Below, in pieces: positions 2,594 through 64,000 of a DNA stretch of 64,000 bases; the stretch's first letter is position 1; each line of letters starts with the position of its first letter. The stretch lies in assembly GCF_003790525.1 (NCBI RefSeq), contig NZ_CP033635.1, one strand, 5' to 3'. This DNA comes from Escherichia coli (GTDB taxonomy: Bacteria; Pseudomonadota; Gammaproteobacteria; Enterobacterales; Enterobacteriaceae). The position numbers were made by a program, and so were the translations under genes. The notes below the pieces were generated by a model, which was given only the letters and a program-made list of their open reading frames with translations, did not search any database and had not been told where the DNA came from.

Positions 2594-2613
2594 AATACTG
2601 TATAAACAGCCAA
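2594..2613 (-). promoter_or_regulatory. LexA box (CTG-N10-CAG type, CTGTTTATACAG on the coding strand) in the dinG promoter
   Basis: aatactgtataaacagccaa about 15 nt upstream of the dinG ATG; matches SOS-box consensus. Confidence 0.6.
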
Positions 2614-2751
2614 TATTGTGGCATTTTTCGGTTTTCAGGGGTAATGGTTTTTCTGTTTCTGGAAAGCGGCTCGCAATAACGTTTTCTGGCTGTGGGGTTT
2701 TCTCGCAACAGAAGAAACATCATTGCGTAGTAAAAGACAATGCACGCAGGC

Positions 2752-3033
2752 TTATTGCGCTGGTGGCCATTGCAGGGCGGTATGTAAAACACGCAGTACC
2801 GAGAGCGTATCGCCCTCCACTTGGTAGATCAGCACATAATGCGGCCTGACAACGGCTTCATGTGTACCAGCGACTCGTCCGGCCCGGTACATCTCCGGGC
2901 GTTCACAGGCCTGTTCCGCAATGGCTTCAAATTGATTATCAAGGGCTATTGCCGCTAGCGGATTATCTTTACTGATGTATTCCATGATTTGCTCCCTGTC
3001 AGACAGGGACATTGGCTTCCATTCCAGACGCAT
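2752..3033 (-). CDS. Type II toxin, ParE/RelE superfamily (93 aa)
   Basis: MRLEWKPMSLSDREQIMEYISKDNPLAAIA...HYVLIYQVEGDTLSVLRVLHTALQWP has the length and conserved pattern of ParE/RelE toxins; its ATG overlaps the stop of the upstream ORF by 1 nt (TAATG). Confidence 0.8.
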   Translation of the reverse strand: MRLEWKPMSLSDREQIMEYISKDNPLAAIALDNQFEAIAEQACERPEMYRAGRVAGTHEAVVRPHYVLIYQVEGDTLSVLRVLHTALQWPPAQ

Positions 3034-3473
3034 TAATCCCCCTTCAGCAAGGCTTTTTTACGGGCAGCAAATAGACTTTTGGCCTCTTCATGAGAGAGCG
3101 CCGGGCGTGGATCGTCAATGGCGGCCTGTACCTGTTCACGAAACCAGGCGTCATACGCGGCAGCTTCATGAGCTCGTTTTAATGCCTCTGCCCTGTCTGG
3201 TCGGGTCGTTTTCTTCTGACCGTCCGGGTCGTAATGAGAGGCGTCGACTTCAAACCGGGCAATACCAACATCTTTCAGGTAGTTGACAACCGTTTCCAGC
3301 CGTTTAAACAAGCGAATTTGCCGACTGCGTTGTGCTGCAAGAGGCCGTTCAGTGTGGCCGTATTTCACGGTCAACGACCAGCCTCCCTGGGTGCCAATAA
3401 CGTGTGCTGCATCCACTACGCCAGATTCAACCAGTTTATGTAAGGTTGAGTGATCGATCGTTTCTGGTGCCAT
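3033..3473 (-). CDS. Putative cognate antitoxin (146 aa) with a ParD/PaaA2-like C-terminal tail and an unassigned N-terminal domain
   Basis: ATG start with AAGAGG ribosome-binding site 8 nt upstream; C-terminal ...YDAWFREQVQAAIDDPRPALSHEEAKSLFAARKKALLKGD resembles the W-x-R...DPRPA tail of ParD/PaaA2-type antitoxins (from memory); translationally coupled to the toxin. Confidence 0.65.
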   Translation of the reverse strand: MAPETIDHSTLHKLVESGVVDAAHVIGTQGGWSLTVKYGHTERPLAAQRSRQIRLFKRLETVVNYLKDVGIARFEVDASHYDPDGQKKTTRPDRAEALKRAHEAAAYDAWFREQVQAAIDDPRPALSHEEAKSLFAARKKALLKGD

Positions 3474-3501
3474 AATGCGCTAACCTCTTTGTATACGGCA
3501 T

Positions 3502-3563
3502 GCAATTTATAATTAAAGATAGCGCAATTAATAATAAATTGCAGCACCTTAATCGTAAATTGC
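3502..3563 (-). promoter_or_regulatory. Putative promoter/operator of the toxin-antitoxin cassette: repeated GCAATT/AATTGC hexamers and a 13-bp imperfect inverted repeat
   Basis: gcaatttataatt (3502-3514) pairs 12/13 with aataataaattgc (3530-3542); further GCAATT at 3524-3529 and AATTGC at 3558-3563; AT-rich; 30-90 nt upstream of the antitoxin ATG. Confidence 0.45.
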
Positions 3564-3604
3564 CCAGGATAAAATTGCGGTAGAAAGAGATTTGTTGCGA
3601 ATAT

Positions 3605-3621
3605 GCCGGGCATCGCCCGGC
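3605..3621 (-). terminator. Hairpin just downstream of rhlE stop (7-bp GC stem, 3-nt loop); possible terminator
   Basis: gccgggc-atc-gcccggc located 9 nt after the rhlE stop codon; no strong U-tract. Confidence 0.35.
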
Positions 3622-3629
3622 ATAAAAGA

Positions 3630-4994
3630 TTACTGCGCAGCGGCAGGTTTACGCGGACGGCGACGGCGTTGTTGTTCGCCTGCCGGTTTGGCATCACCAA
3701 GACGACGAGATGTTTTTTCTGCGGGCTTCGCGCTAGCTGATTTCGCACCACCTTCTCCACGGCGTGGTTGCTGTTGACCGCGACCACCACCTTGCCCACG
3801 ACCGCCGCCGCCACGTTGCTGGCGACCGTTCTGGATCGGTTCGGCTTTGATTGACGGGTCCGGCTCATAACCCGGAATCGCAATGCGCGGGATCTCTTTT
3901 TTCAGCAGTTTTTCGATATCACGCAGCAGTTTGTGTTCATCAACACACACCAGCGACAACGCTTCACCGGTAGCAGCCGCACGACCGGTACGCCCGATAC
4001 GGTGGACATAATCTTCCGGTACGTTTGGCAGTTCATAGTTGACCACGTGCGGCAGCTCTTCAATATCCAGGCCGCGCGCAGCGATGTCAGTTGCCACCAG
4101 TACACGAATATCGCCCGATTTAAAATCAGCCAGCGCACGGGTACGCGCACCTTGCGATTTATTGCCGTGGATCGCCGCACTGCGGATGCCATCTTTATTA
4201 AGCTGTTCAGCCAGATGGTTAGCGCCATGTTTGGTACGGGTAAACACCAGCACCTGCTGCCAGTTCCCTTTCCCAATCATATGCGACAGCAATTCGCGTT
4301 TGCGTTTCTTATCGACAAAGTGAACGTGCTGGGTCACCTGATCAGACGCAGTATTGCGGCGTGCCACTTCGATTTCCAGCGGGTTGTGCAACAGTTTTTC
4401 CGCCAGGGCTTTAATATCGTCAGAGAAGGTCGCGGAGAACAACAGGTTCTGGCGCTTCGCTGGCAGTTTTGTTAACACGCGACGGATATCGTGGATAAAG
4501 CCCATGTCGAGCATGCGGTCAGCTTCATCAAGGACGAGGATTTCAACCTGATCCAGCTTCACTGCATTTTGATGTTCCAGGTCCAGCAGACGTCCCGGCG
4601 TTGCCACCAGCACATCAACGCCGCCGCGCAACTTCATCATTTGTGGGTTAATGCTGACACCGCCAAACACCACCAGCGAACGAATGTTCAGGTATTTGCT
4701 GTAATCACGGACGTTTTCGCCAATCTGCGCCGCCAGTTCACGGGTCGGGGTAAGAATGAGCGCACGTACCGGACGACGCCCTTTGGCGTGCGGCTGGCGA
4801 GTGATCAGGTGTTGCAACAGCGGCAGCGTAAAGCCCGCTGTTTTGCCGGTGCCGGTCTGGGCGCTGGCCATCAGGTCGCGGCCTTCCAACACCGCAGGGA
4901 TCGCCTGCTGCTGAATAGGGGTGGGTTCACGGTAACCCTGCTCGGCAACGGCGCGCAGGATATCAGGGCTTAAACCCAAAGAATCGAAAGACAT
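3630..4994 (-). CDS. rhlE: ATP-dependent RNA helicase RhlE (DEAD-box, 454 aa)
   Basis: ORF track 454 aa, [33 protein letters not shown]..., Gly/Arg-rich C-terminus. Confidence 0.96.
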
Positions 4995-17834: not shown

Positions 17835-18824
17835 TTAGCCACCAATGTACGATAAGTTTTGCGTAATACCGGTGTTGTTTTGATGCAGGAAATGGGTCTG
17901 TTTTTTCTCCCGCAGCGCCGCTGAAATACGCGCTTCCAGCGCCTGTTGCTGGGTATCGTCTTCCAGCAGATCGCGCAGGTTAACGCCGCCTTCACCAAAC
18001 AGGCAGAGATGGAGTTTACCAATGGAGGAAACGCGCAGGCGGTTGCAAGTGGCGCAGAAGTCTTTTTCATACGGCATGATAAGGCCAATCTCTCCGGCGT
18101 AATCCGGATGACAAAAGACTTGCGCGGGACCGTCGCTGCGTTGACGTAATTGGTGGATCCAGCCGCGACGCAGTAGCTCGTCACGCAGAACCTGACCAGA
18201 GATGTGATGCTTACGGAAGAGCTCGCTGCCCTCGCCCGTTTCCATCAATTCGATGAAACGCAGCTGGATAGGGCGATGCTGGATCCAGTTCAGAAAGGTG
18301 TCGAGCTGATGATGATTAACATCACGCATCAGCACGGTATTGACTTTGACCTTCTCAAAACCGGCCTCAAATGCAGCATCGATTCCTGCCATGACCTGGT
18401 TGAATTTATCCTGCCCGGTAATGGCATGAAACTGGCGGGCGTCCAGACTATCAACGCTGACGTTGATGCCAGTAAGTCCAGCATCGCGCCAGTTCGCCAC
18501 ATCGCGTTCCAGACGGTAACCATTGGTGGTGACAGCAATCTGGCGGATAGCGTCGTTTTCTCGCACAGCGGCGATGATATCGGTAAAGTCGCGGCGTAAA
18601 GACGGCTCACCGCCCGTCAGACGGACTTTTTCGGTGCCCAGACTGGCGAAGGCGCGCGTAACCCGGCGAATTTCATCGACGGTAAGAAAGCCTTTATTGG
18701 TGACGCCGCTCGGTTTGTAGCCATCCGGCAGGCAGTAGGTGCAACGAAAGTTACACACATCGGTAATCGACAGGCGCAAGTAGTAAAACTTACGCGCAAA
18801 TGCATCAGTCAGTTGTGAAGCCAT
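17835..18824 (-). CDS. moaA: GTP 3',8-cyclase MoaA (radical SAM, 329 aa)
   Basis: [31 protein letters not shown]... (CxxxCxxC motif); track ORF extends 27 codons upstream from a TTG into the leader; coordinate uncertain by +/-1. Confidence 0.94.
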
Positions 18825-18825
18825 G

Positions 18826-18965
18826 TACACCTTTCCAGATACGGGAGGCGAAGTCATTTCTTCCTTCGCCCTGGTGGCAATCTTTACGAGCATTGTCACG
18901 GCCAAAGCACCGTATCAGTTGACCCAGGTGCAGAGGCTAGAGTGTTTAGTGGTTAAGCCGATACT
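18826..18965 (-). ncRNA. Molybdenum-cofactor (Moco) riboswitch in the moaA 5' leader
   Basis: Structured GC-rich leader immediately upstream of the moaA ATG; position matches the known E. coli moaA Moco RNA element; boundaries approximate. Confidence 0.55.
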
Positions 18966-20130: not shown

Positions 20131-20159
20131 ACGAAGCCGGAAGAATATTCCGGCTTCGT
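20131..20159. terminator. Perfect 11-bp-stem hairpin between convergent ybhK and uvrB (candidate bidirectional terminator)
   Basis: acgaagccgga-agaatat-tccggcttcgt. Confidence 0.4.
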
Positions 20160-61842: not shown

Positions 61843-63411
61843 TTAGCGTGCCGGCTGAGTAGTCGTGGAAGACTGCTCAAAGTGATAGCGACCGGTTTTC
61901 AGGCTGCTTGGGCCGAGGCGTGCAAACTTGAACATTAAGAACAATTCTGCCACCAGGAACAGGGTATACAGGCCGCAAATCAGCACCATTGAGAAGATGA
62001 GATCGCCTGCGGTCAGTGACGAGTTCGCCACAGCTGTCGGTAGCACTTCACCGATAGCCCACGGTTGGCGGCCATATTCAGCCACAAACCAGCCCGCTTC
62101 TACAGCAATCCACGGCAGCGGAATACCGTACAGCGCGGCGCGCAGCAGCCATTTTTTCTCGCCAATGCGGTTGCGGATGACACTCCAGAAAGAGAGCGCG
62201 ATGATTGCCAGCAGCAGGAAGCCACACGCCACCATGATACGGAACGCGAAGTACAGCGGCGCTACACGCGGAATGGAGTCTTTGGTTGCCTGTTGAATCT
62301 GCGCTTCAGTCGCATCAGCCACGTTTGGCGTATAGCGTTTCAGCAGCAGACCGTAACCGAGGTCTTTCTTCATGCTATTGAACTGGTCACGAACCGCCTG
62401 GTCGGTAGAACCAGAACGCAGTTGCTCGAGCAGAGAGTACGCCTTCATCCCGTTACGAATGCGTTCTTCATGCTGCACCATCAGTTCTTTCAGGCCGATA
62501 ACTGGAGTATCCACGGAACGCGTTGCAATGATGCCCAGCGCGTAAGGGATCTGGATCGCAAATTTGTTCGTCTCCTCTTCCTGATCAGGAATGCCGAACA
62601 GAGTAAAGGCAGCAGGCGCAGGTTGCGTTTCCCACTCGGCTTCAATAGCAGCCAGTTTGGTTTTCTGCACGTCGCCCATTTCGTAACCAGATTCATCACC
62701 CAGAACAATAACAGACAGAACGGCAGCCATACCGAAGCTGGCAGCGATAGCAAAGGAGCGTTTAGCGAAGGCGAAGTCACGACCTTTCAGCATATACCAT
62801 GCGCTGATACCGAGGATGAACATCGCGCCAGTCACATAACCAGACGCTACAGTGTGAACGAATTTCACCTGAGCAACCGGGTTAAGCACCAGCTCGGAGA
62901 AGCTCACCATCTCCATACGCATAGTTTCAAAGTTGAAATCGGACGCGATTGGGTTTTGCATCCAGCCGTTCGCAACCAGAATCCACAGTGCGGACAGGTT
63001 TGAACCGAGCGCCACCAGCCAGGTGACACACATATGCTGAACTTTACCCAAACGATCCCAACCGAAGAAGAACAGACCTACAAAGGTGGATTCGAGGAAG
63101 AAGGCCATTAGACCTTCGATTGCCAGCGGCGCACCGAAGATATCCCCTACATAGTGGGAATAGTAAGACCAGTTAGTCCCGAACTGGAACTCCATGGTCA
63201 GACCGGTAGCCACACCCAGAGCGAAGTTGATACCAAACAACTTGCCCCAGAACTTGGTCATATCTTTATAAATCTGTTTGCCGGAAAGGACGTAGACCGT
63301 TTCCATAATGGCCAGCAGGAACGCCATACCGAGCGTCAGTGGCACAAAAAGGAAGTGGTACATCGCGGTCAAGGCAAACTGTAAGCGCGACAGTTCGACT
63401 ATATCTAACAT
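61843..63411 (-). CDS. cydA: Cytochrome bd-I ubiquinol oxidase subunit I CydA (522 aa)
   Basis: [31 protein letters not shown]...; track ORF begins one ATG earlier at 63414. Confidence 0.97.
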
Positions 63412-63554
63412 CATGACTCCTTGCTCATCGCATGAAGACTCCGAGAGTGAACCCCGTTAGAAAGGGTCACACGCATGCCCCAATACAAAATTATTTGCTC
63501 GCCTCTATCGTTGCCATTTCATCAAAAGAGGAAAAGACAATGATAAAAAAGTTA

Positions 63555-63794
63555 CAAATATGTTAATGAATAAACCAAATTGATCCCGTAATTATATTAC
63601 GCCGCAAAATCCTTACAATAAACAGGTTTTTATTGAGCAAATTTGCATTTTTCGACAGTGATCAATTTATAGCGAAATTGTCACGATCTCACCAATTTGA
63701 TCTACGACAATTTATCGTGTTTTGCAGATTTTTTTCAAGAATTAAAAATTGATTTATATCAAAACCAACCAAATATGTTAATTATGTATAAACC
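63555..63794. promoter_or_regulatory. AT-rich cydAB control region with two copies of an AAATATGTTAAT(G/T)...ATAAACC direct repeat (ArcA-box-like TGTTAATTA cores)
   Basis: acaaatatgttaatgaataaacc (about 63555-63577) and ccaaatatgttaattatgtataaacc (about 63769-63794). Confidence 0.4.
63749..63762. promoter_or_regulatory. FNR-type site (TTGAT-N4-ATCAA) in the cydA upstream region
   Basis: ttgatttatatcaa, about 340 nt upstream of cydA ATG in an AT-rich region. Confidence 0.5.
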
Positions 63795-64000
63795 ATAGAT
63801 CATTGGTGATTTTATTGTTAATTTATTGTGAAATATTTATGCAACACAATTATTACAATGAAAAGGTATAGATAAAAAACCAGTGTTTTATTTAACAGAA
63901 CCGCCTTATCCACTTTTTATAATACCAATTGATTAGATTAGCCAATTTGTTGCTATTTTACATAACATATTTTTATCAAAGTTAATTGATTGTTGCCTTT

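Follow-up and report, generated by a model that had tools for sequence, protein, structure and literature searches.

PaaA2–ParE2 Modules and the rhlE–dinG Cassette

Toxin–antitoxin modules of the ParD–ParE family are autoregulated two-gene operons in which the C-terminus of the antitoxin wraps the toxin. In the paaR2–paaA2–parE2 system of Escherichia coli O157:H7, the antitoxin PaaA2 is a disordered protein of 63 residues that lacks a DNA-binding domain, transcription of the operon is under the third gene, paaR2, within the immunity circuitry of a prophage, and the PaaA2–ParE2 pair is sensitive to ClpXP and ClpAP and is addictive (PMC8630535). The toxin ParE2 colocalises with the nucleoid and induces the SOS response, although its target is unproven (PMC8630535). 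The present analysis concerns a pair of genes located between rhlE and dinG in a 64,000-nucleotide stretch of E. coli DNA (contig NZ_CP033635.1 of assembly GCF_003790525.1; hereafter the window), which encode a 146-residue antitoxin and a 93-residue ParE-type toxin.

Taken together, the evidence is probably best explained by a chromosomal type II toxin–antitoxin operon representing a two-gene form of the PaaA2–ParE2 kind, and it is very likely that the two genes constitute a functional toxin–antitoxin pair. In the simplest reading, the N-terminal domain of the antitoxin would serve as a dimeric operator-binding module, which would make the cassette a self-contained, autoregulated two-gene version of PaaA2–ParE2.

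Gene Organization and Annotation

The cassette consists of two overlapping open reading frames on the minus strand, both beginning with ATG: the antitoxin gene at 3033..3473 (146 amino acids, WP_000035214.1), identified from the reading-frame list, RefSeq, and its PF28031 and PF21217 homologues, and the toxin gene at 2752..3033 (93 amino acids, WP_001235510.1), identified by Pfam, TIGR02385, and PDB matches. Because the junction reads GGGGATTAATGCGT (TAATG), the TAA stop codon of the antitoxin and the ATG start codon of the toxin share one base, and Shine–Dalgarno-like purine runs precede both starts (AAAGAGG at 3484–3490, and AAGGGGGA just before 3033). The preliminary description of this DNA had proposed two translationally coupled minus-strand reading frames, and the reading-frame list and the sequence bear this out. 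The two genes are the only ones between rhlE and dinG. A ParE-like reading frame lies directly downstream of the antitoxin gene in other genera of gamma- and betaproteobacteria (76 of 80 related loci), the same antitoxin–toxin order is found on Rhizobium and Xanthomonas plasmids, and no third conserved gene was seen in the relatives inspected (Klebsiella, Salmonella, Yersinia, and Rhizobium and Xanthomonas plasmids).

Both genes already carry names in RefSeq, where the Prokaryotic Genome Annotation Pipeline (PGAP) calls the toxin “type II toxin-antitoxin system RelE/ParE family toxin” or “mRNA interferase toxin, RelE/StbE family”, and the antitoxin “antitoxin PaaA2 family protein” or “hypothetical protein”; each half of the antitoxin has a Pfam family of its own (PF28031 ParC-like and PF21217 PaaA2). 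The cassette had been suggested to be an under-described addiction or defence module. It is under-described in the sense that no experimental work on it was found in the literature on the rhlE/dinG/ybiA locus, strain SMS-3-5, and the PaaA2 family, that searches for PF28031, PF21217, and NF041544 returned no papers, and that a survey of E. coli toxin–antitoxin systems recognizing 21–22 ParE groups does not single it out (PMC10790755); with regard to annotation, however, the genes and domains are already named. The defence role finds no support, as neither protein matched a PADLOC-DB family at E-values of up to 1.

The Two-Part Antitoxin

The C-terminal part of the antitoxin contains a predicted PaaA2-type toxin-binding motif (AAAYDAWFREQVQAAIDDPRPALSHEE, codons 104–130; 3084..3164, minus strand), which matches the Pfam PaaA2 “stability determinant” family PF21217 with an E-value of 4.2e-10 over residues 104–130. 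Residues 82–139 align to the solved PaaA2 protein (3zbe/5cw7/5czf) in a weak single-sequence match (E = 2e-4), and the NCBIfam model NF050103 (“RelB family antitoxin”) gives 47.1 bits against a cut-off of 50. The AlphaFold model of this part comprises two long helices (residues 94–120 and 128–145). A Pfam scan at E-values of up to 10 returned PaaA2 alone, with no ribbon-helix-helix (RHH) or other DNA-binding family, and an NCBIfam scan returned the RelB-antitoxin motif and ParC and nothing else. A ParD-type RHH antitoxin was thus rejected, as no RHH family appears in either scan and no RHH fold in the model; among the antitoxin families that had been considered for this protein at the outset, PaaA2 applies, whereas ParD/RHH does not.

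The N-terminal part is the better conserved of the two among homologues. A total of 895 antitoxin homologues were found, and the 120 that were listed are all approximately 146 residues long, nearly all with the two-part PF28031 and PF21217 architecture. Judged from these domain matches, the fusion of a PaaA2 motif to an extra N-terminal domain is the unusual feature of the module.

This ParC-like N-terminal domain (codons 1–83; 3225..3473, minus strand), the putative operator-binding and dimerisation domain, is assigned to PF28031 by a weak precomputed Pfam match. Residues 1–83 cover the full length of the 80-position NF041544 model (“ParC family partition-associated protein”) with an E-value of 4e-8, but the score of 32.7 bits lies far under the equivalog cut-off of 95 and indicates homology at the level of the domain only; related stand-alone and fused proteins score 34–48 bits against the same model. 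The AlphaFold model of residues 1–83 shows a compact alpha/beta domain with a helix (8–17), three strands (20–45), a second helix (59–69), and a further strand (74–77). Residues 46–56 form an invariant basic stretch, AAQRSRQxRLF, with a local isoelectric point (pI) of 11.8. The ParC protein of the IncP-9 plasmid NAH7 was also considered as a relative and was rejected as unrelated, because it has no NCBIfam match and an hhalign probability of 0.2%.

A profile of the domain alone recovers 782 clusters at 50% identity. Within the best 150 of these clusters, 79 have a PaaA2 tail, and most of the others are stand-alone proteins of 60–120 residues. Stand-alone ParC-like genes encoding 83–89 residues reside on small mobilisable plasmids of E. 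coli and Aeromonas, such as pRHB31-C04_3 of E. coli (L088:2998-3267) and pAH06-06-3 of Aeromonas (L091:2998-3249), where no toxin partner lies directly downstream. Nine Burkholderia phages (PV072748.1, PQ789814.1, and seven others) encode an unannotated homologue of the domain with 36% identity, as detected by tblastn. In a metagenomic protein of 171 residues (P0131), the ParC-like domain appears to be joined in one polypeptide with the last half of a ParE toxin, through either an artefactual frameshift or a fusion that occurs naturally.

A Candidate Palindromic Operator and the ParC-like Domain

The spacer upstream of the antitoxin gene (3474–3602, 129 bp) has a G+C content of 34%, compared with 52% for the window. 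A consensus scan of the minus strand finds a −10-like hexamer, TATTAT (3536–3531), and, 17 nt from it, a −35-like hexamer, TTTACG (3559–3554), which is not significant alone. The cassette had been credited with its own AT-rich promoter; the AT-richness stands, and the sigma-70-like match is not significant in its own right. The −10-like hexamer is enclosed by an operator-like perfect palindrome, GCAATTTATTATTAATTGC (3524..3542), with the form GCAA-N11-TTGC. An extra AATTGC half-site on the minus strand (3502..3507) lies between the palindrome and the ribosome-binding site and is kept in E. coli strain 1579, in E. whittamii, and in the Klebsiella/Pantoea relatives. Two GCAATT half-sites (3573–3578 and 3558–3563) are located upstream of the −35-like hexamer, but constitute weak evidence, because they are kept only within E. 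coli and are altered in E. whittamii.

A survey of the palindrome covered 78 related loci (Enterobacterales, Pseudomonas, and Betaproteobacteria); apart from it, their spacers cannot be aligned. In 40 of these loci, the exact GCAA-N11-TTGC pattern precedes the antitoxin start at a distance of 52–76 nt, and 14 more have a version with one mismatch. Elsewhere in the same loci, the exact pattern is found at a rate of 0.0044 per 120 nt, so that approximately 0.34 loci would be expected to carry it by chance; the palindrome over the −10-like box is thus enriched more than 100-fold among the relatives and is a candidate operator. The stand-alone ParC-like genes, which have neither a PaaA2 tail nor an adjacent toxin gene, are preceded by the palindrome CCTGCAA-N11-TTGCAGG at −73, and the palindrome of the cassette does not differ between E. 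coli and E. whittamii, although the spacer around it does. The palindrome GCAA-N11-TTGC therefore travels with the N-terminal domain across Proteobacteria, stand-alone copies included. Where the basic stretch at residues 46–56 is replaced, the repeat differs as well: the subfamily with AATRGxPxxFRQ has the repeat CACTT...AAGTG, and the subfamily with GTQRTDKPRxW has TTGCA...TTGYRT.

These associations make an operator-binding role for the N-terminal domain rather likely. Whether the ParC-like domain (PF28031) also represents a DNA-binding fold undescribed for antitoxins, an alpha/beta fold similar to eL38 and the FtsH N-domain that would read GCAA-N11-TTGC, probably through the AAQRSRQxRLF loop, is an evenly balanced question. 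Several observations weigh against DNA binding. Confidence in the domain model is moderate (predicted local distance difference test 74.7, predicted template modelling score 0.42), the folds nearest to it (eL38 and the FtsH N-domain) are not of a DNA-binding type, and no solved relative of the domain was found. The literature search found no paper describing a ParC-like domain as a DNA binder. Both the association of the palindrome with the domain and the co-variation of loop and operator are confounded by shared ancestry, and the sigma-70-like promoter match around which the operator is placed is no better than the shuffled expectation (two sites against 1.4 expected).

Some of these points would fit a different role, in which the domain is a protein-interaction, oligomerisation, or partition module, such as a partner of a ParA-type ATPase or a sensor, and the palindrome is bound otherwise or by a host factor. 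Among named families, the partition-associated ParC proteins are nearest; the small pMF1 ParC, possibly a relative of this domain, is reported to form a soluble complex with ParA and to act through it rather than via DNA (PMC7843461); the structural neighbours are not DNA-binding folds; and the domain as a whole is near-neutral (pI 7.0). However, parA and parB are absent beside the chromosomal cassette and beside most relatives, the NF041544 score is far under its cut-off, and the kinship with IncP-9 ParC has been discarded as described above. Moreover, neither the palindrome nor its distance is changed in the stand-alone copies, and the basic stretch, invariant in the form AAQRSRQxRLFKR, changes along with the repeat type. 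A role apart from DNA binding is therefore unlikely, and the operator-binding reading of the domain is preferred.

The ParE2-like Toxin

The 93-residue toxin matches the Pfam ParE_toxin family PF05016 with an E-value of 1.2e-13, with residues 3–86 aligned on positions 1–86 of the 89-position model, and scores 38.3 bits against NCBIfam TIGR02385 (RelE_StbE), above the cut-off of 27.9. When the single sequence is compared with the PDB, ParE2 of E. coli O157 is a weak match (E = 1.2e-6). As the PF05016 and RelE_StbE models span the whole RelE/ParE superfamily, a toxin-family profile was built from 20 orthologues and run against all PDB sequences. The top match of the profile is ParE2 of E. coli O157:H7, over its full length and with an E-value of 2e-17, followed by the ParE-type chains 5ceg (4e-6), 6x0a (5e-5), and 7ycs (0.025). 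RNase-type chains (YafQ and HP0894) are matched at E-values of 0.25–1, and ParE1 of M. tuberculosis (8c24) ranks alongside them at 0.5. The ParE/RelE hallmarks noticed at the outset were confirmed by these Pfam, NCBIfam, and profile matches.

By this ranking, the closest solved relative of the toxin is ParE2 of E. coli O157:H7, which places the toxin on the ParE2 side of the superfamily, and a ParE2-like, DNA-directed activity is somewhat favoured. Two points speak against a DNA-directed toxin: RefSeq labels the protein “mRNA interferase, RelE/StbE family” in some genomes, and the target is unestablished even for the model toxin ParE2 (PMC8630535). If the toxin were instead a RelE-like ribosome-dependent mRNA interferase, the cassette would be a RelBE-type module that arrests translation. 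The TIGR02385 score above its cut-off agrees with such an activity, as does the use of that name by PGAP in many genomes, the breadth of PF05016, and the proximity of the antitoxin motif to the cut-off of the “RelB family antitoxin” model. The profile, however, finds ParE2 and three further ParE chains before any chain of the RelE/YafQ type, and the C-terminus of the toxin, LRVLHTALQWPPAQ, resembles by eye the ending of ParE2 and is without the Arg/Tyr pair that we take to be catalytic in RelE. In addition, the PaaA2 motif of the partner is known only with ParE toxins (PMC8630535). An mRNA interferase is thus improbable, and the ParE2-like assignment of the toxin is retained below.

Proposed Mechanism

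In the proposed mechanism, a single promoter in the AT-rich spacer would drive both genes, with translation of the toxin coupled to that of the antitoxin through the TAATG junction. The C-terminal helices of the antitoxin (approximately residues 94–145, including the PaaA2 motif) would probably wrap and neutralise the toxin, by analogy with the solved PaaA2–ParE2 complex. The free ParE2-like toxin would most likely interfere with DNA topology, through DNA gyrase or a related topoisomerase, and trigger the SOS response. The ParC-like N-terminal domain may dimerise and bind GCAA-N11-TTGC over the −10 box, and such binding would cause the operon to repress itself. Since ~70%-identical cassettes are carried by IncF and IncR plasmids, the old chromosomal copy could possibly act as an anti-addiction module against them.

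Distribution, Age, and Selection

Of 5,426 complete E. coli genomes, 324 have the cassette, in each case as a single chromosomal copy between rhlE and dinG; these carriers fall into two allele groups (66 genomes with an identity of at least 99% and 258 with approximately 96.3%). Strain SMS-3-5, which we take to belong to phylogroup F, is 99.9% identical to the window over 24.7 kb and encodes the same two proteins between rhlE and dinG. The cassette is also present at the rhlE–dinG site in E. whittamii and in contigs whose variant of the toxin is attributed by NCBI to E. ruysiae/E. marmotae. The synonymous divergence between the two E. coli alleles is 0.06–0.085 in the cassette and 0.088 in the flanking rhlE; between species, that of the cassette is approximately half that of the flanks, the genes being small. 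As the synonymous divergence of the cassette equals that of rhlE, the cassette is an old polymorphism maintained in the genus rather than a recent gain, and the expectation that it would prove strain-specific does not hold.

The ratio of nonsynonymous to synonymous polymorphism (pN/pS) is 0.04–0.15 for both genes within Escherichia and 0.2–0.33 against the plasmid relatives; both genes are under strong purifying selection. A non-functional plasmid addiction module in decay, lying passively in the rhlE–dinG spacer, is a highly improbable reading of the cassette: although chromosomal toxin–antitoxin modules are often without measurable phenotype, related cassettes sit beside insertion sequence (IS) elements on Klebsiella, Salmonella, and Yersinia plasmids, and a few cluster members are truncated (86, 127, and 139 residues), both reading frames are intact in all sampled genomes at the low pN/pS given above, the palindrome has stayed the same in E. 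coli and E. whittamii while the spacer around it differs, and the synonymous divergence speaks for long residence without decay.

The alternative occupant of the site is ybiA, whose product, YbiA, is a NADAR enzyme that reverses DNA ADP-ribosylation. The comparison of cassette and ybiA across the E. coli pangenome that had been proposed for this locus gave 324 genomes with the cassette and 3,429 with an intact ybiA among the 5,426. A third state of the spacer, a 5′-truncated NADAR (ybiA) pseudogene, was seen in sampled examples (such as TUM13770) of the remaining ~1,670 genomes. All three states diverge at one nucleotide, directly after GGCTCGCAATAAC (window position 2680).

Copies of the two-gene unit (2760–3543) with approximately 70% identity are found on Klebsiella, Salmonella, and Yersinia plasmids beside IS elements. 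An origin as a prophage module was considered and rejected, as PHROGs gave unnamed families alone and the tblastn search of phages gave only the 36%-identical N-terminal domain in nine Burkholderia phages.

The Locus and Its Surroundings

The whole cassette segment spans 2681..3602, with junctions at 2680/2681 and 3602/3603 that were defined by blastn against the K-12 locus and by comparison of the three haplotypes. Its 922 bp stand in place of a 707-bp K-12 segment that contains ybiA, on the strand opposite to that of the cassette genes, and repetitive extragenic palindromic (REP) elements. Identity to K-12 is 99.3% to the left of the cassette, ends at 2680, and resumes at 3603 with 91.9%. 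The absence of ybiA, which had been noticed beforehand, is confirmed by this replaced segment and by a tblastn search of K-12 YbiA against the whole 64-kb window, in which the best match was no better than E = 1. No IS element, integrase, tRNA, or flanking direct repeat was seen at the cassette junctions.

The right junction is marked by a terminator-like hairpin of rhlE (3602..3624), with 10-nt arms (TATGCCGGGC and GCCCGGCATA) that are 100% complementary, and K-12 homology restarts at this hairpin. A 16-nt direct repeat with 81% identity, ATTGCCCAGGATAAAA (3559–3574) and ATCGCCCGGCATAAAA (3612–3627), links the spacer upstream of the promoter with an arm of the rhlE hairpin, and may be a recombination scar or a chance match. 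The 3′ end of rhlE (3603–3802), which encodes an Arg/Gly-rich tail, shows 16 differences from K-12 in its last 200 nt, while the remainder of the gene shows 0–8 differences per 100 nt; the tail is locally hypervariable.

In the left flank, outside the cassette and 65 bp from the junction, the minus strand contains TATTGGCTGTTTATACAGTA (2596..2615), which we take to be the SOS (LexA) box of the published dinG operator. Transcription of the cassette operon, whose toxin would presumably induce SOS, runs toward this presumed SOS-regulated dinG promoter, and the sole element between the operon and the box is a weak terminator-like hairpin at 2744–2760.

The surroundings had been described as following the K-12 gene order, with the cassette as the only accessory content, and both statements hold for the part of the window covered by the core-content check (1–54,000). 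Positions 1–29,252 are collinear with K-12 except for the cassette, and the segment 29,253–54,000 is covered to at least 80% in 5,360 of the 5,426 complete E. coli genomes; positions 54,001–64,000 were examined with Rfam only. Between uvrB and yvcK, approximately 150 bp of K-12 are missing from the window at 20154–20157, probably owing to a REP-type indel. Rfam identifies ordinary core features, namely a molybdenum cofactor (Moco) riboswitch (18812–18956), an array of six tRNAs (53709–54300), and a cpoB/ybgF thermometer (55227–55365), all on the minus strand.

Significance and Comparison with Known Systems

The toxin is an ordinary member of the ParE family, and both proteins and their domains are already catalogued in databases. 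The practical weight of the finding is accordingly small, as it adds one more lineage-restricted ParE module, already named in RefSeq, to the E. coli pangenome. As a natural two-gene counterpart of the much-studied paaR2–paaA2–parE2 system, the cassette nevertheless offers a simple test of how a disordered motif of the PaaA2 type can be coupled to transcriptional control, and it draws attention to a small, widely distributed domain for which a DNA target is predicted. If the operator-binding reading is correct, the fused ParC-like domain would supply in cis what PaaR2 provides in trans to the O157 systems, and its stand-alone versions, carried by plasmids and a few phages, would belong to the same class of small autoregulators. 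The lead most worth following is this domain together with the GCAA-N11-TTGC operator predicted for it. The rhlE–dinG spacer is in addition an old three-state polymorphism (intact ybiA, truncated ybiA, and cassette) beside an SOS-controlled gene, which may interest both the field of the DNA-damage response and the study of how toxin–antitoxin modules become fixed in chromosomes.

The ParC-like small proteins (PF28031; NF041544) resemble the antitoxin in its N-terminal 83 residues, which here continue into a PaaA2 tail in a protein that has a toxin partner. The classical ParD–ParE systems (RK2, Caulobacter, Vibrio cholerae, Mesorhizobium 5ceg/6x0a, and M. tuberculosis 8c24) share the ParE-fold toxin with the cassette. 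ParD antitoxins bind DNA by an N-terminal RHH, whereas the N-terminal domain of the present antitoxin is modelled as an alpha/beta fold in which no RHH was detected.

The system of E. coli O157:H7 (prophage CP-933P; structures 3zbe, 5cw7, 5cze, and 5czf) resembles the cassette in its toxin, in the PF21217 motif of its antitoxin, and in the order of antitoxin followed by toxin. The short disordered antitoxin and the separate paaR regulator, which characterize the described PaaA2 systems, are both missing at the rhlE–dinG site: only two genes are present, with no paaR2, and the antitoxin has 146 residues with an N-terminal domain that is modelled as folded. The cassette also has its own palindromic candidate operator, and its location is a spacer of the core chromosome instead of a prophage. 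The plasmid copies (the IncR plasmid pRHBSTW-00973_4 of K. pneumoniae, the IncF plasmid pCFSAN006269 of S. Javiana, and a plasmid of Y. frederiksenii) have the same genes, the same lengths, and the same palindrome position. In contrast to these copies, which adjoin IS elements, the copy in the window is chromosomal, lies at a fixed site, and is common to several Escherichia lineages.

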